Source: Candidatus Liptonbacteria bacterium (GTDB lineage: Bacteria; Patescibacteriota; Minisyncoccia; UBA6257; 2-01-FULL-56-20). From it: 64,000 nucleotides of DNA. This document shows, piece by piece, positions 52,159 to 63,438 of this stretch. The position numbers and the translations under genes were made by a program. The notes beneath the pieces were generated by a model. That model ran no database searches, was not told the DNA's origin, and saw nothing but the letters and a program-made list of their open reading frames with translations. The DNA lies in contig JACQKW010000015.1 of assembly GCA_016204385.1 (NCBI GenBank), positions 98,155-162,154 on the forward strand, read 5' to 3'. Numbering within the stretch: the first letter of the stretch is position 1; each line of letters begins with the position of its first letter.

Positions 52159-52190
52159 GGGGGCATCCGGATTCCGGATGCCCCATTTTT
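52159..52190. terminator. Bidirectional intrinsic terminator between the convergent Nudix-like gene and ileS
   Basis: GGGGGCATCCGGATTCCGGATGCCCC with T-runs on both flanks. Confidence 0.6.
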
Positions 52191-55100
52191 TATATTTTCT
52201 TCACCGCAACCCAGATCGGCACACCATCGAGTTTTGAATCAAGCTCCGCATCGAACTTATCGGTTTTTTTATAGTAGATTGTCCGCGCGCCCACTTCGTG
52301 AAGAAACGCTTGTTCGGCGCCCTGAAGAATTGATTGGACGTGGCTGGGCAGCGCGAAATAAATCTCTATTTTATCCCTTGGTTTAAGTCCCGCATCCTGC
52401 CGTAAGTCCTGCACCATGCGCACCATTTCCCGCACCATGCCTTCCCTTTTAAGCTCCAGCGTGATTGCGGTATCAAGCGCAACATCTTCTTTCGTGTTGC
52501 GATCAAATTTGATCTCTTTTACATTCACTTCATCCGCTAAAATTTCGAGTAGTTCCTTACGATTTGCCATTTGCCTGCCCGCTTCGCGTTGCGACCTGCC
52601 CGACTTGCCTTCGGCAACTCGAAGGCTGGCGGGAGCAAGGCGGGCGGGCCATTTGCTATTTGCCGCGACGCGAAGCGCCGCAAGCGGTTGCCTCACTTTT
52701 ATGCCTGCCTCGGCGCGTTTGGCGAGCGCCACGCTTGCGATGCGCCGCACCTCTTCCATCGCGGCGATAAGCGCTTTGCCATTTGCCCTTTGCCCTTTGC
52801 GAAGTATTGGCCAGTCCGCAAGGTGCGGAGAGAGCGCAGTTTTCACATTCCCCTTGAGTTCACCGTAAAGGAATTCCGCAAAAAAGGGCGTGAAAGGCGA
52901 AATGAGAAGCGTGAGCTCATGCAAGACATGGCCAAGCGTAACCGAGGCATCGTTAAAATCTTTTCCTTTATCCATATTCTTCCCGGCTCCCTGTCGTTCC
53001 GGCTGGAATCTTCGGCGCGAACGGCGGATATACCAGCGCGAGAGGTCATCAACAAGCGCCTCGAGCGCAAGCGCCGCGCCCCGAACGTCGTAGGATTCGA
53101 GCGAATCGGTCGTCTTTTTCTTGGTTTCTTCAAGCCGCGCAAGGATCCATTTGTCTAAGATATTGTTGGATGTTGGATGTTGGATGTTGGATGTTTTTGA
53201 TCTGACATCTAACTTCTCACGTCCTACATCGAACGCCTTACCATACGTCTTGTAAAACACGAGCGAGTTATAGAGAAGAAGATGAAATCGCCGATATGCC
53301 TTAAGGACATCGGCTTCTTCGAAATTCATCGGCTCGCCGGCGGGTTTTACGGTATAGAAATACCAGCGCACGGCGTCAACGCCGTATTTTTCCATCATGC
53401 GCCACGGGTCAACCACGTTCCCCTTCGACTTCGACATTTTCTTTCCGTGCATGTCGTGGAGAAGCCCGAGCGATATGACGTTCTTATACGGGCGCTCGCG
53501 GCCAAGTGCGGTTGCGACCGCAAGGAGCGTATAGAACCACCCCCTCGTCTGGTCCATCGCCTCAGTGATGTAGTCGGCCGGATACTCATTCGGTAGGGTT
53601 GGGCGTTGGATGTGAGAAGTTGGATGTTGCGCGAAGGGCCAGTGCGCTTGCGCAAACGGCATCGCGCCGGAATCGAACCACGCGTCGGCGAGTTCCGTGA
53701 CGCGGCGCATCTCGCCGCGGCATTTACCGCACGGAAACCCGCACTCGTCTATAAACGGGCGGTGCAGGTCTACGAGACCGGATTCATTTCTCGGCAATAC
53801 CTTCAGTTCCAACTTTCGCGCCTCGCCCACGCGCACAAAATCCTTGCCGGGCTCTCCGGCGTTCCCCTTCCTCAAAATCGTTTCTCGCTCGTCCCACCCT
53901 TCTCCCGCGTGGAAAAGCATCCAGATGGGATATTCGTGGCTCACGAGCAGGATGCGTTTCCCCTTGTGTGTCCGCTCGAGTTCAGAAAGCAGTTTCCACG
54001 CCCTCGCCCGGAGGTCACGGAGCGACTCGCCCCCCTCGGGACGCTTCTCAAAACGCATTTCGAGCGTCGGGTAGAGCGCGCCGTACTCCTCGCTGCGGCA
54101 ACCCGAAAGTTTGCCAAGGTGTATTTCATGCAAGCGCGGATCGAAAATAACTTTTTTGATTCCGAGCACGCCTGCCGCAATCTCCGCGGTCTCTTTCGTC
54201 CGGAGTATGTCCGATGAGATAAGCACTTCGATGCCCGCTTTTTTGAGTCGCTCGGCAGTTTGTTTCACTTGGTCGCGCCCGATGGTGGTGAGATGATACT
54301 GTTTCTGTCCGGAATCAATGAGTTTAAGGAGTTGGATCTCTGATTCGCCGTGCCGGAGAACCCAATACTCGTTTTTTGCTTTCCCGGCGCGCGTTCTCAA
54401 CTCCTCGACGCCGCCGATCACCTCGGTCGCCGCGCATGTGCCGCACCTCCATATGGGGAGCGGCGTGCCCCAATACCGCTCGCGCGAAAAATTCCAGTCC
54501 TTCACGTCGCGGAGCCACTCGCCGAAGCGCCCCTCTCTAAGATGCAGCGGCACCCAATTGATTTTTTTGTTTTCCTTGAGCAATTTCCCTCGGAGCTTGC
54601 TCATCGCGACGAACCACGATTTCCGCGCATAGTAGATGAGCGGCGTCCCGCACCGCCAGCAAAATGGGTACTCGTGTGTATACGGTTGGGTAGCAAAAAG
54701 CAAATCGCGCTTTTTGAGATATGAAAAAATTTTTTCTTCGGTTTTTTTATCCTTCACCGCAAGTCCGGAAAGCCCCAGAACATCCTTTGTGAACTTTCCT
54801 TCTTCGCTTACGGTATGGCGCTGCGGCAGATCGTTGTTAACGCCTAGTTGATAGTCATCTTCGCCGTACATTACCGCAGTGTGCACCACCCCCGTGCCTT
54901 CGTCGGTCGTCACGAAATCCGCGGCATAGATTTTGTGAGAGTTCTTATTGCGCAATGATTTCACATCAAAAAGCGGCTCGTAGGAAAGCCCAGCAAGGTC
55001 ACTGCCCTTGAAATCCTTGATGTTAGTGAACTTCCCAATAACCTTTCCAGCCATCACAATATCTGCCACGCTTTGATTTCCTTGCGGATGACGCGCTTCA

Positions 55101-56047
55101 ACGCCAAGGATTCTTTTGTCGGCGTCATCGGTTGCCGCAAAGATATACGTTTCTCCTTCCTTTAAGGGAAGGTTTGGGACGTCAATACTTTGAACCGTAA
55201 CGCTCATATATCGAATATTCCTCCCCACCGCGAGTGCAACATTCCCGGGCAGCGTCCATGGTGTGGTCGTCCAAGACAAGACATATGTATTCGGCGCGAT
55301 TCGCGCTTTGCGATTCGCGCTTTGCGATCTAAGCTTGAATTTCACATAGACCGACTGATCCGTTGCCTCCTCGTACCCTTGCGCCAGTTCGTGCGAGGAG
55401 AGCGCCGTGCCGCATCGGGTGCACCACGGCACCACTTTGTGCCCCTCATAGAGAAGTTTCTTCTTCCAAAACTCTTTGATGGTCCACCAGAGCGTTTCAA
55501 TATAGCTTGTCTCGTATGTCACATATGGATTCTTAAGGTCGAGCCAAAATCCCATCCGCTCGGTGAGCTTTTCCCACTCGTCTTTGTACTTCCAAACGGA
55601 TTCGCGGCATTTTTGGTTGAACTCCGCGATGCCATATTTTTCAATATCCTTCTTTGATGTGAGCCCCAGCGCCTTCTCCACCTCAATCTCCACCGGCAGG
55701 CCGTGCGTGTCCCAACCGCCCCTCCGCGGCACGAAAAAACCGCGCATGGTCTTGTAGCGAAGGATGATGTCCTTGAAGGAACGCGCGAGGACGTGATGGA
55801 TGCCGGGCCGCCCGTTCGCAGTCGGCGGCCCTTCAAAAAACACAAAGTGTTTTTTGCCCTGAGCCTGTCGAAGGGCGATCGTTTTTTCGAAAATCCGGTG
55901 CGTTTTCCAGAACTTCAAAATCTGTTCTTCTTCCTTAGGCAGGTGGAACGCTCCCGGAGAAGAAAACGCCGGGGCGTCTCCCGTAGGGATACCGTTATCT
56001 CTCATTTTAAAATTCCGCATGCGTGTGGTATCATACAACAGTTCCAA
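52190..56047 (-). CDS. ileS: Isoleucine--tRNA ligase (type 2-like) carrying an about 210-aa histidine-phosphatase (PGAM/RHG) insertion
   Basis: The HIGH-region analogue (GRPGIHHVLARS), the WNFSRERYWGTPLP editing/zinc region, KMSKS, and YPADYITEAMDQTRGWF. The insertion spans residues about 558-765 (nt about 53750..54380) and starts VLRHGESE with downstream SSDILRTKETA and LLVSHE motifs. The true start may be the internal Met (MRDNG or MRNFK). Confidence 0.9.
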   Translation of the reverse strand: MELLYDTTRMRNFKMRDNGIPTGDAPAFSSPGAFHLPKEEEQILKFWKTHRIFEKTIALRQAQGKKHFVFFEGPPTANGRPGIHHVLARSFKDIILRYKTMRGFFVPRRGGWDTHGLPVEIEVEKALGLTSKKDIEKYGIAEFNQKCRESVWKYKDEWEKLTERMGFWLDLKNPYVTYETSYIETLWWTIKEFWKKKLLYEGHKVVPWCTRCGTALSSHELAQGYEEATDQSVYVKFKLRSQSANRKARIAPNTYVLSWTTTPWTLPGNVALAVGRNIRYMSVTVQSIDVPNLPLKEGETYIFAATDDADKRILGVEARHPQGNQSVADIVMAGKVIGKFTNIKDFKGSDLAGLSYEPLFDVKSLRNKNSHKIYAADFVTTDEGTGVVHTAVMYGEDDYQLGVNNDLPQRHTVSEEGKFTKDVLGLSGLAVKDKKTEEKIFSYLKKRDLLFATQPYTHEYPFCWRCGTPLIYYARKSWFVAMSKLRGKLLKENKKINWVPLHLREGRFGEWLRDVKDWNFSRERYWGTPLPIWRCGTCAATEVIGGVEELRTRAGKAKNEYWVLRHGESEIQLLKLIDSGQKQYHLTTIGRDQVKQTAERLKKAGIEVLISSDILRTKETAEIAAGVLGIKKVIFDPRLHEIHLGKLSGCRSEEYGALYPTLEMRFEKRPEGGESLRDLRARAWKLLSELERTHKGKRILLVSHEYPIWMLFHAGEGWDERETILRKGNAGEPGKDFVRVGEARKLELKVLPRNESGLVDLHRPFIDECGFPCGKCRGEMRRVTELADAWFDSGAMPFAQAHWPFAQHPTSHIQRPTLPNEYPADYITEAMDQTRGWFYTLLAVATALGRERPYKNVISLGLLHDMHGKKMSKSKGNVVDPWRMMEKYGVDAVRWYFYTVKPAGEPMNFEEADVLKAYRRFHLLLYNSLVFYKTYGKAFDVGREKLDVRSKTSNIQHPTSNNILDKWILARLEETKKKTTDSLESYDVRGAALALEALVDDLSRWYIRRSRRRFQPERQGAGKNMDKGKDFNDASVTLGHVLHELTLLISPFTPFFAEFLYGELKGNVKTALSPHLADWPILRKGQRANGKALIAAMEEVRRIASVALAKRAEAGIKVRQPLAALRVAANSKWPARLAPASLRVAEGKSGRSQREAGRQMANRKELLEILADEVNVKEIKFDRNTKEDVALDTAITLELKREGMVREMVRMVQDLRQDAGLKPRDKIEIYFALPSHVQSILQGAEQAFLHEVGARTIYYKKTDKFDAELDSKLDGVPIWVAVKKI
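53165..53192. repeat. Tandem heptamer (GTTGGAT)x4 inside ileS coding sequence, encoding ...TSNIQHPTSNN
   Basis: Seen directly. The related GTTGGATGT also occurs twice at 53617-53640, encoding QHPTSHIQ. Confidence 0.7.
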
Positions 56048-58323: not shown

Positions 58324-58764
58324 ATGAAGGTGCTCTCGGAGAACCGCCGCGCGAAATTCGACTATGAAACGCTCGATACCTACGAAGCAGGCATCGAGCT
58401 TTTGGGAACCGAAGTAAAAAGCGCAAAACTTGGGCGGATAAATTTATCGGGCGGACATGCCATTGTGCGCAAAGATGGGGTGTGGCTCGTGGGGATAGAA
58501 ATTCCCGCCTATCAGCCGAAGAACGCGCCCCAGGATTTCGACGCAAAACGCACGCGCCGGCTCCTGCTCCATGCATCTGAAATAAAAAATCTTATCGGCA
58601 AGCTTCACGAAAAGGGGCTCTCGCTTATTCCCCTTCGCGCATATCTCAAAAACAGTTTGGTCAAGATCGAACTTGGTCTCGCGAGGAGCCGAAAGAAGCA
58701 CGACAAGCGCGAACTCCTCGCGCGCCGCGCCCACGAACGCGAAATAAGGGAACGGGAACGCTAA
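58324..58764 (+). CDS. smpB: SsrA-binding protein SmpB
   Basis: FDYETLDTYEAGIELLGTEVKS...NLIGKLHEKGLSLIPL and a basic C-terminal tail. 146 aa. Confidence 0.9.
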   Translation: MKVLSENRRAKFDYETLDTYEAGIELLGTEVKSAKLGRINLSGGHAIVRKDGVWLVGIEIPAYQPKNAPQDFDAKRTRRLLLHASEIKNLIGKLHEKGLSLIPLRAYLKNSLVKIELGLARSRKKHDKRELLARRAHEREIRERER

Positions 58765-59117
58765 AAGAAACTGCCCGAGGATTGCCTCCGTAAAAGCGTG
58801 TAGATGCCGTCACGCGAATACGTGAGCGTGTATTGGTTTTCATTGTCCGCCTCGAACTGTGCGGATCCCTTGAGGCGCGCCTGATCGAAAAATACCGTCG
58901 CCTCCTCGCGCGCGAGGTCGTCGCGTAAATACGCAACACCGCTTTTCACGTCGTCTTCCGTCTCGTACTGCACGCGATAGCCGTGAATGGTGGTTTTTTC
59001 AAGCATTTTGTCTTTTATATGATAATAGCACGGTATTGTCCTTTTGATGCCAGCGAATGGGTACAGAAAAAGCGCTCCGACGTGTGGTCGGAGCGCGTGG
59101 TCTTCACCTTGCGTCAT
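58761..59117 (-). CDS. Hypothetical protein (118 aa)
   Basis: Start chosen at MTQGEDH, which is preceded by a GAAGGGG Shine-Dalgarno 4 nt upstream. The track's longer 159-aa ORF overlaps the upstream small gene. It converges on smpB. Confidence 0.35.
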   Translation of the reverse strand: MTQGEDHALRPHVGALFLYPFAGIKRTIPCYYHIKDKMLEKTTIHGYRVQYETEDDVKSGVAYLRDDLAREEATVFFDQARLKGSAQFEADNENQYTLTYSRDGIYTLLRRQSSGSFF

Positions 59118-59274
59118 CCCCTTCGATTTCGATGCCGCAGTGGGCGCAGTAGTCCGGGTCTTGGGCGTCGCGAACATGCGAGCCGGTGGGAGAATTGGGG
59201 CACGTTCCATCCACGTTTGGCATGCTGAACACATCGACAAATCGGCGCTCTTTCGGATGAGGTTCCATGCTCAT
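59104..59274 (-). CDS. Small Cys-containing protein (56 aa, C-x18-C-x2-C)
   Basis: MSMEPHPKERRFVDVFSMPNVDGTCPNSPTGSHVRDAQDPDYCAHCGIEIEGDDAR. A strong AAGGAGG Shine-Dalgarno sits 6 nt upstream of the ATG at 59274. Confidence 0.4.
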   Translation of the reverse strand: MSMEPHPKERRFVDVFSMPNVDGTCPNSPTGSHVRDAQDPDYCAHCGIEIEGDDAR

Positions 59275-59322
59275 ACCAGTCCTCCTTTCCAGAGAATACT
59301 GCGTTATAGAGTTCTCAAGGTG

Positions 59323-59452
59323 CAAAACGAAAAGAGCCGCCGAGAGGGGCGGCCCTTGCGTTACTTGTGTGCTTTAACTACCGCAGCCCTTCTCGTGCGC
59401 TCAAAGCTCGGTAGCTAAAGAAATTGATGTGGAGACGGTTATTCATCTCGAT
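59323..59452 (-). ncRNA. Candidate small RNA (about 130 nt) bounded by a consensus promoter and an intrinsic terminator. It contains a possible 22-codon micro-ORF.
   Basis: Promoter TTGACG, 16 nt spacer, TATAAT at 59459-59486 on the minus strand. Terminator GCCGCC-CCTCTC-GGCGGC plus TCTTTTCGTTTT at 59354-59323. The internal stem is CTACCG...CGGTAG. The micro-ORF is ATG 59446..59381 (MNNRLHINFFSYRALSAREGLR). Confidence 0.3.
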
Positions 59453-59458
59453 ACCTTG

Positions 59459-59486
59459 ATTATACTCCGCGAGAAGGTGCCGTCAA
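59459..59486 (-). promoter_or_regulatory. Near-consensus sigma70 promoter for the candidate sRNA
   Basis: On the minus strand: TTGACGgcaccttctcgcggagTATAAT. Confidence 0.45.
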
Positions 59487-59501
59487 ACCGGAAATGGGGA
59501 T

Positions 59502-59530
59502 AAAAAAACGCGCTGCCGGTGGGCAGCGCG
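59502..59530 (-). terminator. Rho-independent terminator for 59558..59932
   Basis: On the minus strand: CGCGCTGCCCACCGGCAGCGCG followed by TTTTTTTAT. Confidence 0.6.
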
Positions 59531-59557
59531 GGCGTTGCGGAGCGCGTACGCGTCCGC

Positions 59558-59932
59558 CTAATGCACGGTGCAGTGGTTGGCGTCTTCCTCGTTGAGCTTT
59601 CGCCACGCACCCTCCGCAGAGCGAAGCTGTTCAAGGCGCTGCGCCCCTTGAACAATCTCCGCGGCATTCTTGACCCACACAAACGACCGGACTGCCGGGA
59701 GCACGCGTTCCTCGATTTTGGGAAGGCGGGACTCGCGCACCTGCGCAATGAGGTGATGGATTTCCTGTTCCGAGATGTGCGCGAGCAGAACACCCGTCCT
59801 CACCGTAAAGATCGCCGCCTCCTGCGACGCAAAGTACGGACTCGTCACGCCCGAGGGCGCAATGATGCGCCCGTGCATGCCGCAGTTCTCGCACCACTCA
59901 ATCCACGCCGCGGACCTCACGAGTTCGGCCAT
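59558..59932 (-). CDS. Hypothetical protein (124 aa) with an N-terminal CxxC and a C-terminal H/C tail
   Basis: WIEWCENCGMHG...NEEDANHCTVH. It has its own terminator. Confidence 0.45.
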   Translation of the reverse strand: MAELVRSAAWIEWCENCGMHGRIIAPSGVTSPYFASQEAAIFTVRTGVLLAHISEQEIHHLIAQVRESRLPKIEERVLPAVRSFVWVKNAAEIVQGAQRLEQLRSAEGAWRKLNEEDANHCTVH

Positions 59933-60015
59933 AGCACCTCCTCCACAAAAGTAGGATGTCGTAGAACTAAAAAGAGGAAAGCACGCGGCGCATCTTTTGT
60001 CAAGACGCGGCGGTC

Positions 60016-60053
60016 ATAATAAAATCACCCCGCTTAGCGGGGATGATTTTATC
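60016..60053. terminator. Bidirectional intrinsic terminator after 60066..60287
   Basis: CACCCCGC-TTA-GCGGGGATG with ATAATAAAAT upstream and ATTTTAT downstream. Confidence 0.55.
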
Positions 60054-60065
60054 GCAGAGAATTTT

Positions 60066-60287
60066 CTAACAGCACTTGCACTTTGATCCCATGAGCTTCA
60101 TGGCGCCGGCCGCAATCACAAGAATCGGCCACGCGTAGCCCGCAAATTCATCCGTGAGCGTTCCCGCCGTCCGGAGCAGAAACACGAGCCCAAAGAGTAT
60201 TATGAGGATCGGGATGATTTTGTGGTGCGTGCATCCGCAGACTTTCCCCTTCTCCATCATCCCCATTCCCATCTTATCTTCCATCAT
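60066..60287 (-). CDS. Small Met/Cys-rich single-TM membrane protein (73 aa), a possible metal-binding peptide
   Basis: MMEDKMGMGMMEKGKVCGCTHH, a hydrophobic helix, then ...KLMGSKCKCC. A candidate extended -10 promoter (TGGTATAAT) lies at about 60330-60345 on the minus strand. Confidence 0.45.
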   Translation of the reverse strand: MMEDKMGMGMMEKGKVCGCTHHKIIPILIILFGLVFLLRTAGTLTDEFAGYAWPILVIAAGAMKLMGSKCKCC

Positions 60288-60439
60288 AATAATGTAAAAT
60301 GACCACCTCGACCTTTCTGGATCGCTTCTACGCTTATTATACCACTTCTGATTTTCAGGAGTCGGAAAACCGCCTTTTCGTCGCGTAGCTCGCTCAGGGC
60401 ACTTGAAAATCTAATCCCGCCTTTTAGGCTGGAATGCTT

Positions 60440-60567
60440 TTCTAAGTGGAGATGGGGGAATTGAACGTCGTCGCTCGCTATACAGCAAGCTCCTCCCTCA
60501 CAACCCACGGTTTTGAGTAATTTCCTATACGGGAGGACTCCATCTCCTCCCGACCCCTCCTTTTGTT
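60440..60567 (-). ncRNA. Highly structured RNA element with nested helices and a 10-bp pseudoknot-forming complement. It also contains a 20-codon micro-ORF with a strong Shine-Dalgarno. It could be a riboswitch, an sRNA or a leader.
   Basis: P1 pairs GGAGATGG (60440-7) with CCATCTCC (60532-9). P2 is GCTCGC-TATACA-GCAAGC; on the minus strand this is GCTTGC/GCGAGC, all Watson-Crick or GU. P3 pairs TCCTCCC (60483-9) with GGGAGGA (60523-9). GGAATTGAAC (60449-58) is complementary to GTTCAATTCC (60558-67) across P1, which suggests a pseudoknot. The minus-strand micro-ORF is AAGGAGG...ATGGAGTCC... (MESSRIGNYSKPWVVREELAV). Confidence 0.3.
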
Positions 60568-60574
60568 CAATTCC

Positions 60575-60623
60575 ACCCTTCAGAAATAAAATATCCCACC
60601 CTTGCGGTGGGGTATTTTATTTT
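60575..60623. terminator. Bidirectional intrinsic terminator downstream of the PHP-ATPase gene. Its loop carries an 8-bp tandem duplication (CTTGCGGT x2).
   Basis: An 18-bp stem (GAAATAAAATATCCCACC / GGTGGGGTATTTTATTTT) with a GC-rich core and A/T-rich outer arms. The loop is CTTGCGGTCTTGC. Confidence 0.5.
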
Positions 60624-60788
60624 AGTGGAGCGTATCGGGGCAGACCTCGAACCGGATCCGCTTTAATCCAGGCGTTGTGGCGGTGGTTCGCGGAGAACCC
60701 CACGATCACCTTCCAGTATGGCACACGGAGCGATGGTGCCAAGGGGGCGGAAGTTGCCGCGTGACGCAAAAAAAGACCACCCTACAAT

Positions 60789-63401
60789 CTATAGGTCATA
60801 CTTCTGAATCCTTAACCTTAGAGCATCCTTACCACCTTCAAGATGCACAAGTAGTAGCTTGTTAGTCTCCAAATGATCTACTGCACCACTACTCTTGATT
60901 TCGCCCTTATCTGCGCTTGCATCAAGAACATGACTCAATTCTGCATCTGCACCCACAGCGATGTTCGGATTGTGAGTTGTGAAAATGAACTGGCGGTCCT
61001 CCTTGCTCCTTCGCAACGTCTTCACTACATGCCCGTATATGGATTGAGTGTCGAGGGGTTCCTCGGGTTGATCGATAACCAACGGCCCACGCCCTTCGAT
61101 CATAGCCAGTGAGATGATAACTGTGCCTTTCTGACCTGTAGATAGCTCACGAAGCGTCTTCTCCCGTCCTGGTTCGACAACGTAAGTGACCTCTGGTAGG
61201 TCCGGAAGCGATACACACTCGAGTTCATATAGCTCATCAAGGGGCTTACCCGAGAAGGATTCGACCAGCCGCTGTGAAACGCTCTGCGTTACCCCAGCCT
61301 GTTTCGCAAGGGAATTAATGTCGCCCTTCCTCACGAGTGCTAGAAGTTGCCGTGGTGAGAGTACCCTAGCCGCCTGTCGAATATCAGGCTCTCTTACATA
61401 GCCGCTCCGCGAAAGCGTTCGGATAGTCTCCTCAAACTCGGATCGGTCTCCGGACAAAACAACCTTTATCCGAACAAGGCCGCCCAGACCAACTTCGAAC
61501 TCCTCTGCCTTTTTGTTTCGCTTCTCCCATCTCCTTTTCCTGACCAGATCCAGCCGATCGAGCAGTCTGCCCCGCTGCGAGTCTAGAGTTCGTTCTTCCT
61601 CCCTTACCTTCGTTAGTTCTGCCCCGTGTTTCCTTAGAGTCTCGACTCGCTTTCCGAGGCTGCGGAAACGGGCATTTACCTTCCGAACATCTTTCTGACC
61701 CAGTTCTTCCAATGCGCTATCATGCTCATCCTTCTTAGCGTTGAACAGCGGCGTCAGCTCATCTGAGATCTTCTTAATGTTCTTTCGCAGCCCCTCGACC
61801 GATCCCAACAAGTCGCGCTTCGCAGAGGCGATGGCTTTGACAACAGCATCGTGGACGCCCTCCAGGCCCTTTATGATCTTCTTGTTTGGCGCATCCGCTG
61901 GTGCTGCTATTTCGACGTGTGTTAGATCAACATCGTCCAAAGCGTTTTCCATAGCTGAGCCGAGCTCGCCGAGTGCTTCATCCAGCGAGGCGACATATTC
62001 CTGTTCAGCCTCCCAGTTTGGAAATTCCTTCAGGACGGGATTCTTCAACTGTCGTTCAAGACTCTTATATTGAGTACGGGTCGCTTCCTTCCCGGTTTCT
62101 GGGTTGTCCAACTCGCTCTGAAGGTGAGATATCCGATCCTGGCATTTCACGAACTCCTTTGCATTCGTGCGAAGTTCATTCAGGATTCTGTTTTCCTCAG
62201 TCTGCTCCTCTTCAAGGGTTACTCTGCGGTCGATTAGGTCTAGCTGAGCGAGTGGATTTGAGGCAATCTGCACGAACTCCCCCTGACTGAAGAATGCCGG
62301 CGATGTCTCAAGCTGCGCCACACTGCCGGTGCCATCACGAACCTCTCTATCTGTTGCCCACGGCTGGACCTCTCTTTTAATGGTTTTCACTTCACCATCA
62401 CCATCAAGATACTCCACAACAACTGATCCGCCGTGGCCCACCAGCGAGGCAATCTTGCCTTCGTGATCCTCTCGGATATCCCTAAACTCTGACACATCAT
62501 CAAAACAGTACCGGAGCAGTTCGATTACCGTCGATTTCCCTGTCCCCTTTCCACCAACCAAGCAGTTGAGGCTCTCGTGGAAGCCAAACGACAATCCTCC
62601 AAAGAAACCCTGGTCGACTGAAAGCCGCATTATTCGAGGGTGGGTAGGTTCGCGGTAGTTCCAAGGAAATCGGACTCGCACTTCGTGATCCAGCAGAGCG
62701 TGGCGAACACCCCTAAGTGATGGCTTATCCATCTTGAGATATGTCACCCGTCGCCCGATTTCGGCAAGACTATGAGAATCCGATGAATGCGTGCAAGGCT
62801 TCGCGGGATAGGTAGGAGCGAGCTTGCCGTTGCAAAATTTGTCGATATCGGATTCCTTGGTGTGCTCGAGCGCAGCGAGTTGGGGGAGAGGCACGAGGGC
62901 AATCTTGTATTGGCCTTTCGCCTTCAACAACCCGTTGTTCTCATTGGCATGAGCGGCGATAGCGAGGCCTCCCGCCTCGTGAATTTTCTTTATGACGATT
63001 TCAGCATGATCATCTGAGATCGCCTCTTCTTTGCCTTGTGTGTCTCGTTGGATGCCGACGCTAATCAGAAGATCCGCGATCTTCGAAGTATCGTGGTTCA
63101 CCTCGAACAGTGCCAAGATGTGTCCTTCTGGAGTAGTAATCTCGACACCCGGGAGGACCGTGACAGTGCTCTTCTCGCTGGCGGAGCGCATGGATTCGAT
63201 CCACTCGACCGAGTTATGGTCCGTAATCCCGAGGATGTCGATGCCCTTCTTCGCCGCTTCCTGAATCAGCTTCTCTGGGGTGGCATCTTTGCCGGAGTGG
63301 TCTTTCGAGGCGGGTGTATGCGTGTGCAGGTCGGCTTTGTAGAACCGAGCGCCTTCAGAATCAGCCATGGTGCCTGAATAATACTCCTTCAGACAGGCCA
63401 C
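60789..63401 (-). CDS. PHP-domain phosphoesterase fused to an SMC/Rad50-like ABC ATPase with a long coiled coil. Candidate single-gene defence protein with a Ppl-like architecture.
   Basis: 870 aa. The N-terminal PHP motifs are DLHTHTPAS, GITDHN, VEIT, GHIL, AAHA and SSDSHS. Walker A is GGKGTGKST. About 400 aa of charged coiled coil follow. The C-terminal ABC signature is LSTGQK, Walker B is LVIDQPEEPLD and the H-loop is FIFTTHNPN. Confidence 0.8.
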   Translation of the reverse strand: MACLKEYYSGTMADSEGARFYKADLHTHTPASKDHSGKDATPEKLIQEAAKKGIDILGITDHNSVEWIESMRSASEKSTVTVLPGVEITTPEGHILALFEVNHDTSKIADLLISVGIQRDTQGKEEAISDDHAEIVIKKIHEAGGLAIAAHANENNGLLKAKGQYKIALVPLPQLAALEHTKESDIDKFCNGKLAPTYPAKPCTHSSDSHSLAEIGRRVTYLKMDKPSLRGVRHALLDHEVRVRFPWNYREPTHPRIMRLSVDQGFFGGLSFGFHESLNCLVGGKGTGKSTVIELLRYCFDDVSEFRDIREDHEGKIASLVGHGGSVVVEYLDGDGEVKTIKREVQPWATDREVRDGTGSVAQLETSPAFFSQGEFVQIASNPLAQLDLIDRRVTLEEEQTEENRILNELRTNAKEFVKCQDRISHLQSELDNPETGKEATRTQYKSLERQLKNPVLKEFPNWEAEQEYVASLDEALGELGSAMENALDDVDLTHVEIAAPADAPNKKIIKGLEGVHDAVVKAIASAKRDLLGSVEGLRKNIKKISDELTPLFNAKKDEHDSALEELGQKDVRKVNARFRSLGKRVETLRKHGAELTKVREEERTLDSQRGRLLDRLDLVRKRRWEKRNKKAEEFEVGLGGLVRIKVVLSGDRSEFEETIRTLSRSGYVREPDIRQAARVLSPRQLLALVRKGDINSLAKQAGVTQSVSQRLVESFSGKPLDELYELECVSLPDLPEVTYVVEPGREKTLRELSTGQKGTVIISLAMIEGRGPLVIDQPEEPLDTQSIYGHVVKTLRRSKEDRQFIFTTHNPNIAVGADAELSHVLDASADKGEIKSSGAVDHLETNKLLLVHLEGGKDALRLRIQKYDL

Positions 63402-63438
63402 GTGAAGAGCGAGTGAGCGGGAGCTATCCTCCCTCCTG

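Follow-up and report, generated by a model that had tools for sequence, protein, structure and literature searches.

Near the end of a 64,000-nt stretch of the Candidatus Liptonbacteria bacterium genome (contig JACQKW010000015.1; the whole stretch is hereafter called the window), an open reading frame (ORF) at 60789..63401 on the reverse strand raises the question of what a single protein that joins a PHP-type nuclease domain to a Rad50/SMC-like ABC ATPase might do in a bacterium of the Candidate Phyla Radiation (CPR; Patescibacteria). An original prediction, made from the sequence without database searches, had proposed that this gene is a single-gene anti-phage system, and had named Ppl as its likely identity. 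The analysis presented here confirmed the observation and partly supports the interpretation: with a probability of about 0.62, the gene encodes a stand-alone member of a PHP-nuclease/ABC-ATPase superfamily (PHP-ABC) that acts in anti-phage or anti-plasmid defence.

The ORF was confirmed as a real gene, yet its start had to be moved. Read mechanically it comprises the 870 amino acids (aa) first stated, counted from GTG 63401. The true start is more likely ATG 63368, which yields 859 aa and is preferred because it is also where the public protein P0001 begins, a sequence found in two Logan assemblies with 100% identity to the window protein. The N-termini of homologs line up at this same ATG in the alignment, and GAAGGAG lies directly upstream of it, whereas GTG 63401 comes without a ribosome-binding site.

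Searches of the protein with hidden Markov models (HMMs) returned PHP at residues 24-105, a weak PHP_C, and SMC_N/AAA_23/AAA_21 across residues 267-820 from Pfam, as well as the TrlF family from NCBIfam. Conservation was read from two alignments, one of the window protein with 13 homologs (14 sequences, among them authentic Ppl and two plasmid TrlF types, all from E. coli, and one Spaf_1101 protein) and one with 31 homologs (32 sequences). The PHP domain had been called complete on its HxH, DH, E, H, H and DxH motifs, and all of these metal ligands are indeed present: H26xH28, D61-H62, E87, H94, H151 and D208xH210 (870-aa numbering, here and for the ATPase motifs). The motifs predicted for the ATPase were found as well, namely Walker A GGKGTGKS(T), the signature LSTGQK (S754-G756-Q757), Walker B VIDQPEE (D777-Q-P-E780) and the H-loop THN (H810), to which the alignments add Q-loop Q373 and D-loop D784. 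All ligands and motifs are invariant or nearly so in both alignments: H26, H28, H62, E87, H94, H151, D208, the GxGKS core of Walker A, the signature Gly and Walker B D777 and E780 are invariant, E. coli Ppl included, and D61, H210, Q373, signature S754/Q757 and H810 are kept in at least 90% of the aligned sequences. The LEGG motif at the C-terminus is also conserved. Walker B itself is peculiar, as its D-Q-P-E (61050-61067; residues 766-771 of 859) presents a Gln at the position after Asp that is usually taken by the catalytic Glu in ABC ATPases; the D, P and E are invariant among the aligned superfamily members, again including Ppl, and the Gln is kept in at least 90% of them. Speculatively, this arrangement may be connected with nucleotide sensing rather than hydrolysis.

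An AlphaFold model based on the 32-sequence alignment was confident (pLDDT 88.4, pTM 0.72). When the model was compared to the PDB with Foldseek, its ATPase part matched the heads of MukB, Smc, JetC, Rad50, RecN, cohesin and condensin (probability 1.00 for the first five), and its N-terminal domain matched Endonuclease Q (7k30/5zb8), with a root-mean-square deviation of 3.5 Å over about 232 columns, and PHP phosphoesterases. The predicted fold is accordingly described as a Rad50/SMC-type bipartite head joined by an antiparallel coiled coil, a reading on which Foldseek and Pfam agree. The coiled coil is shorter than first thought: in place of about 400 aa, the model gives about 242 aa, plus a helical domain of roughly 90 aa. 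At the coiled-coil apex, neither sequence nor model revealed a CxxC zinc hook (there is no Cys in 470-510) or a hinge domain. A sequence search of the PDB found no solved Ppl or TrlF relative, returning generic ABC and PHP matches only.

Is the protein, then, a Ppl? Against the NCBIfam model for TrlF family AAA-like ATPases (NF045780) it scored 461 bits, above the cutoff of 350 and essentially over its full length (protein 17-868, model 2-943 of 944), whereas the Ppl equivalog (NF042955) gave 214.6 bits in two stretches against a cutoff of 1000, and the Spaf_1101 family (NF045781) 231 bits against 475. The best match in the PADLOC library (hmmscan) was the broad Ppl model PDLC02208 (E = 3.9e-44), with its best stretch covering protein 17-305 and model 4-313 of 894. 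Other PADLOC matches (mad3, LmuB, AriA, GajA and PtuA) were weak or generic, with those to LmuB, AriA and GajA limited to the P-loop and signature regions; the MADS mad3 match was dismissed as uninformative, since it spans the generic ATPase region only. BLASTP against E. coli Ppl (WP_015059139) aligned residues 6-286 (29.5%, E = 5e-28) and 691-856 (29%, E = 4e-15), leaving the middle unaligned. In pairwise comparisons, the best non-identical homolog reaches 59% identity; the figure drops to 28-31% for TrlFs of actinobacteria and haloarchaea, 27% for an E. coli IncF TrlF, 21-23% for a TrlG-linked TrlF from an IncC plasmid and 20% for the Spaf_1101 protein.

In a neighbour-joining tree, the window protein falls in a mostly metagenomic clade, with the TrlFs of actinobacteria and haloarchaea as its sister groups; Ppl lies outside this clade, together with the IncF TrlF, and the TrlG-linked TrlF groups with Spaf_1101. 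Because of these groupings, Ppl and "TrlF" are best described, as far as sequence relationships go, as branches of one large PHP-ABC superfamily. An exhaustive HMMER scan found 9214 cluster representatives of this superfamily at E <= 1e-3 and, as a lower bound, 1330 at E <= 1e-30, with clusters defined at 50% identity. Of the original assignment, what survives is that Ppl is the closest entry in PADLOC; the equivalog score, the TrlF score and the tree speak for a different branch, and the proper label should be "TrlF-family / Ppl-like PHP-ABC nuclease" in place of Ppl. A literature search on the name 'TrlF family' found nothing; the name TrlF itself derives from the Photorhabdus temperature restriction locus trlR-trlF-trlG, whose distribution is patchy and tied to horizontal transfer (PMC7554251).

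The family as a whole is patchily distributed over bacteria, archaea, plasmids and phages. The nearest homologs of the window protein (56-60% identity) reside in integrative and conjugative elements of unrelated organisms, and tblastn matched 1186 plasmid records, 847 of them conjugative, as well as 10 phage or satellite records. We inspected the gene neighbourhoods at 12 further loci, those of ten homologs, of E. coli Ppl itself and of one Spaf_1101 protein; nearly all of them are mobile elements or defence-rich. P0003 lies with a tyrosine integrase and TrwB; P0007 and P0044 with TrwB, PDDEXK, RadC and TIR proteins and large serine recombinases; P0027 with PDDEXK and DUF932; P0035 with an IS200-type transposase; and P0107, on a Rhodococcus plasmid, with Shedu SduA_C and a Mu transposase. 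Two haloarchaeal homologs sit in a Dpd-type cluster (QueC/SNF2, DUF1156/DUF499 and Mrr or a restriction endonuclease), and P0053 sits within a type I restriction-modification (R-M) operon, HsdM-HsdS-X-HsdR (L029 4107-12866). On plasmids, we found the order HsdR-TrlF-TrlG-HsdS-AAA-HsdM on IncC, where the TrlF-TrlG pair is present (L015 1017-10607), a DEAD helicase and an N6-methylase with TrlF on IncF (L012 1284-8832), and the gene for Ppl itself on IncF plasmids (L014). On the Enterococcus gilvus plasmid pCR1B (L016 1-5160), genes for a ThiF-family E1, a JAB/MPN protein and a hypothetical protein lie directly upstream of the Spaf_1101 PHP-ATPase gene. No neighbour gene was common to all 12 loci, and the immediate neighbours were different at every one of them, so that the window protein's clade, judged by gene context, appears to act through single genes. 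The single-gene defence reading of the original prediction would fit these variable neighbourhoods, which are rich in defence and mobile genes and lack a conserved partner.

The gene's own surroundings also point to an accessory segment, as had been claimed. It closes a 9.26-kb segment that has a 43-bp direct repeat at its two ends and that also carries an operon for a CapH/CapP-associated ubiquitin-like (Ubl) system. The two repeat copies, A just downstream of the gene and B just past the window end, are identical at 41 of 43 positions (0 such matches would be expected from chance alone), and their longest common exact run is 24 nt. We could follow the segment past the window by means of the Logan contig L001, which is 100% identical to the window over a 3330-nt overlap, reaches 5.9 kb beyond the window end and, at 9256 nt, equals one repeat period. 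Two independent Logan contigs, L001 and L002, break off 4 nt short of copy A. Because they stop there, and because the exact run of 24 nt is shorter than the k of the Logan assembler, which we take to be 31, the breaks suggest alternative junctions, either empty or circular, in the sampled population. Scans of metagenome contigs for an empty site or for an extension past copy B gave 0 matches. A prophage origin of the island was rejected, as PHROGs gave no structural or replication matches, only the functionally unannotated family phrog_1090, a HicB-like protein and a regulator.

On the chromosomal side, the smpB-argS-ileS block is kept in relatives, and the conserved block ends at smpB. The synteny comparison that had been called for covered 11 relatives, none of which has a PHP-ABC homolog in the stretch retrieved around argS; this stretch reached up to 10 kb to either side wherever the contig was long enough. 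The best ArgRS match, at 57% identity, comes from uncultured "Saccharibacteria"/Paceibacterota metagenome-assembled genomes. One end of the repeat (...GGTTCGA...ACGCTCCAC / ACGCTCCA-C) resembles the acceptor (3') end of transfer-messenger RNA (tmRNA) or tRNA-Ala. Its T-arm is non-canonical, Rfam gave no match at E <= 10, ARAGORN detected nothing near the repeat, and no tmRNA gene (ssrA) was found in the 64-kb window. In the comparison of window positions 58764-60700 with relatives, ssrA stands directly beside smpB in four of them (L019, L020, L021 and L024); in L018 (619-2443), ssrA is convergent to smpB at a distance of 8.5 kb, and a large serine recombinase gene abuts or overlaps its 3' end.

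The proposed compositional contrast at this edge held in part. The GC content of the gene (0.524) is close to that of the upstream chromosome (0.535), and strong foreignness of the gene was rejected on these values, whereas the rest of the island is mildly GC-richer (0.579). The terminator ascribed to the gene in the original prediction was not recovered directly after the stop codon, where the fold is no better than that of shuffled sequence (z = -0.72); a clear hairpin with a T-run lies 175 nt downstream. The coordinates of these and the other features are collected in the table below.

Several characterized systems help to frame what such a protein might do. As reported in a 2026 review (PMC12904381), E. 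coli Ppl is a 3'-5' exonuclease on single-stranded DNA, inhibited by nucleoside triphosphates bound to both of its domains, and activated when phage depletes nucleotides and homing endonucleases supply 3'-OH ends. Phage T7 is restricted by Ppl, against which Bas63 gp130 acts as a countermeasure (PMC11482910), and in S. epidermidis a PADLOC-called ppl correlates with phage resistance (PMC13152194). The window protein shares with Ppl a PHP domain placed first, with identical metal ligands, followed by an ABC head split by a helical and coiled-coil insert (891 aa in Ppl vs 859 aa), and the catalytic motifs can all be aligned, down to the unusual 'DQPE' of Walker B and the 'EGG' near the C-terminus; both are encoded by single genes on mobile elements. 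The two differ in that they share only 20% identity overall, the window protein scores below the equivalog cutoff, and they belong to different tree clades; the biochemistry described above is that of Ppl. To the Photorhabdus TrlF it is similar in architecture, in its full-length match to the family model and in its patchy, horizontal distribution; it differs in that the TRL operon supplies TrlG and TrlR as partners, and neither TrlG (AlbA_2 + HATPase_c_4) nor TrlR was found among the neighbours in the window or on L001. With Spaf_1101 it has in common the superfamily and the conserved motifs, set against an extended N-terminus in the latter and the low identity and score given above.

The likeness to Mre11-Rad50/SbcCD, with Rad50 among the top fold matches, lies in joining an ABC head and its long antiparallel coiled coil to a phosphoesterase nuclease that depends on metal, and a logic of DNA-end or hairpin processing is likely common to both. 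By contrast, the window protein carries a PHP domain rather than a calcineurin-type one, fused in cis; it lacks the zinc hook, its coiled coil is much shorter, and its gene context is accessory. As had been anticipated, an SbcD-type partner is missing, with no calcineurin-type (Metallophos) family match among the neighbours. Wadjet JetC, Lamassu LmuB, PARIS AriA and Gabija GajA belong to systems against phages or plasmids in which, as in the window protein, an ATPase of the ABC/SMC type is teamed with a nuclease, and JetC structures were among the top fold matches; these systems, however, are multi-subunit or employ Toprim, Cap4 or other nucleases. Wadjet and Lamassu also have partner subunits and a hinge, whereas no JetA/B/D, LmuA/C or AriB genes were found near the window gene, and its model has no hinge.

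On the basis of these analogies, we propose that the Rad50/SMC-like head, with its coiled coil of ~240 aa, would dimerise upon nucleotide binding and engage DNA, most likely free ends or replication and recombination intermediates of invading phage or plasmid DNA. The cis-fused PHP domain, in this scheme a nuclease that needs metal and cuts as an exonuclease or an endonuclease, would then degrade that DNA. On this view the protein is a single-chain functional analogue of Mre11-Rad50/SbcCD, and a nucleotide-gated switch comparable to that of E. coli Ppl is plausible for it. Its gene has a putative promoter region of its own and is the terminal gene of a 9.26-kb, integrase-less island in a CPR genome, and the CapH/CapP-controlled Ubl module (Bil/6E-type) on the same island would be independent of it.

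A stand-alone defence nuclease is the best reading because the homolog contexts are variable and rich in defence and mobile genes, no partner is conserved, the gene lies on a repeat-bounded island, and no homolog turned up in the argS surroundings retrieved from relatives. Several points weigh against it. Overall identity to the validated E. coli Ppl is ~20% and the central third does not align. The Photorhabdus TrlF belongs to a three-gene operon whose only phenotype, temperature restriction, was mapped to TrlG and not to TrlF (PMC7554251), and several homologs sit in multi-gene R-M-like clusters, meaning that some family members may not act alone. As for the island, family scans of its proteins revealed no recognisable integrase, its far end, placed at copy B on L001, is provisional, and the idea that the repeat is the 3' end of ssrA or another RNA gene serving as the island's target is an unproven hypothesis, drawn from the likeness to the relatives' ssrA ends and from synteny. 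Finally, the synteny comparison drew on distant relatives, with ArgRS identities of 57% or less.

Might the gene serve the mobile element rather than the host? As a selfish maintenance or competition factor, it would act in the exclusion of competing elements, in addiction or in the processing of the element's own DNA, and not in host immunity. Such a role would suit the predominance of conjugative records among the matched plasmids, the homologs in elements of the integrative and conjugative kind with TrwB/TraG coupling proteins, RadC and DUF932, those in phage and satellite records, and the position of the gene at the very edge of the repeat-bounded island. True defence genes, however, typically ride mobile elements as well, the homolog Ppl protects against phages, and the homologs within type I R-M operons or beside Shedu, TIR and DUF1156/DUF499 point to defence; the idea also overlaps mechanistically with the defence reading, and we regard it as unlikely. 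Somewhat more doubtful is that the gene is one component of a multi-gene system, either as the effector of the adjacent CapH/CapP-Ubl operon or with a partner such as the products of the 71-aa or 88-aa genes nearby. The Ubl operon (HTH, M78, Multi_ubiq, E2, JAB and ThiF) does lie upstream on the same strand and within the same repeat-bounded segment, the Enterococcus plasmid shows ThiF, JAB and a hypothetical gene ahead of the Spaf_1101 PHP-ATPase, a homolog of the 71-aa ORF occurs 6 kb from P0003, and other family members are fixed in multi-gene clusters (TrlF-TrlG-TrlR, or embedded in R-M operons). Yet nine other loci, drawn from the clade and its sister groups, yielded no E1, E2 or JAB genes, TrlG and TrlR are missing from the window and L001, the gene and the operon stand ~750 nt apart, with a divergent ORF and a promoter-like sequence between them, and the immediate neighbours change from one homolog locus to the next.

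That the gene instead performs housekeeping DNA repair or chromosome maintenance, as a fused PHP analogue of SbcCD/Mre11-Rad50 or RecN in a reduced genome, strikes us as very improbable. The fold does resemble the heads of Rad50, RecN and SMC, PHP domains act as proofreading or repair nucleases in PolX and EndoQ, the GC content of the gene matches that of the host, and CPR genomes often do without canonical repair genes. Against this stand the absence of any homolog from the argS surroundings retrieved for relatives with smpB-argS-ileS, the location inside a repeat-bounded accessory segment, nearest homologs in integrative or conjugative elements of unrelated organisms, and the patchy distribution of the family. 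A bolder variant of the defence reading holds that the metagenomic clade constitutes a mechanistically distinct, single-chain 'PHP-Rad50' immune nuclease, carried on small integrase-less CPR islands that target the 3' end of ssrA or of another small RNA gene, and coupled on this island to the CapH/CapP-Ubl system; for instance, DNA damage may induce the two together, or the Ubl may be attached to the nuclease or to its phage target. We consider this variant improbable, and return to the stand-alone nuclease as the reading of choice.

Table. Features of the PHP-ABC locus (window coordinates unless a contig is named)
Feature	Position	Strand	Remarks
Coding sequence of the PHP-ABC ATPase	60789..63368	-	859 aa from ATG 63368; mechanical ORF reaches GTG 63401 (870 aa)
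PHP phosphoesterase (nuclease) domain, residues 1-245	62634..63368	-	Pfam PHP + PHP_C; invariant ligand columns; Foldseek EndoQ 7k30/5zb8
ABC ATPase head, N-terminal half (Walker A GGKGTGKST, Q-loop)	62214..62633	-	Pfam, alignments, AlphaFold model, Foldseek
Antiparallel coiled coil, residues 386-627 of 859	61488..62213	-	Secondary structure of the model
Helical domain, roughly 90 aa, between coiled coil and C-terminal head half	61209..61487	-	AlphaFold model
ABC head, C-terminal half (LSTGQK, VIDQPEE, D-loop, THN, LEGG)	60792..61208	-	Pfam, alignments
Promoter-like -35/-10 (TTCACG, 17 nt, TATTAT)	63378..63406	-	Ends 10 nt before ATG 63368; consensus match only
Hairpin (GC) + T-run, bidirectional terminator-like	60595..60614	-	Just beyond repeat copy A; 175 nt past the stop codon
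43-bp direct repeat, copy A	60625..60667	-	Proposed island boundary, just downstream of the PHP-ABC gene
43-bp direct repeat, copy B	L001 3-45		Just past the window end, 9.26 kb from copy A
Divergent ORF, 71 aa	63439..63654	+	Adjoins the PHP-ABC gene; without family match

The Ubl operon occupies L001 2256-5410 (~64517-67671 in extended window coordinates). It encodes a CapH-like helix-turn-helix (HTH) protein (PADLOC E = 8e-14), a CapP-like M78 peptidase (E = 3e-8), Multi_ubiq (79 aa), Prok-E2_E (132 aa) and Prok-JAB (176 aa) proteins, whose matches are each weak alone and stand in canonical order, and a ThiF E1 (285 aa, E = 5e-36). By these matches, the operon is a predicted Bil/6E-type ubiquitin-like conjugation system under a regulator pair of the DNA-damage type, in a CPR genome. 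The island further holds a HicB-like gene and one for a small DUF5678 protein; the latter is followed by a gene for a 139-aa protein with a retropepsin-like 'LLDSGAD', read by eye and without a Pfam match, and the two (L001 540-1168) look like a two-gene module at the far island end. Between the ThiF and PHP-ATPase genes lies a gene for an 88-aa protein (L001 5533-5799) that matches phrog_1090 (E = 2e-30), with marginal matches to Cas2 models (E about 0.009).

A few further observations concern the homolog loci and the flanking chromosome. R-M-like clusters repeatedly enclose PHP-ABC homologs (L029, L015, L012, L009 and L013). The E. gilvus plasmid pCR1B offers a second case of E1/JAB beside a superfamily member, which may be a defence-island coincidence (e.g., CBASS Cap2/Cap3). 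The 71-aa divergent ORF has a 54% identical homolog ~6 kb from P0003, the 59%-identical PHP-ATPase, in an unrelated element (L003 16598-16804; L004 14143-14349). On the chromosomal side, the 1285-aa IleRS (52190-56047, reverse strand) contains an inserted His_Phos_1 domain with an RHG motif at residues 562-719 (E = 4e-34); the IleRS of relatives align over the full length, and the histidine-phosphatase insertion seems conserved in this CPR lineage.

Taken together, these results add a well-supported, motif-intact member from a CPR genome, a group whose defence repertoires are poorly charted, to the Ppl/TrlF superfamily, which turns up repeatedly in defence islands, within type I R-M operons and on conjugative plasmids. 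The family is already named and widespread, and what is new is most likely this member and not the kind; its main interest lies in the CPR host, the clean repeat-bounded island and the neighbouring CapH/CapP-Ubl module. The curated labels 'TrlF family' and 'Ppl' name branches of a single superfamily. The locus also presents a compact, clonable test case for whether the nucleotide-gated exonuclease mechanism of Ppl generalises across that superfamily.

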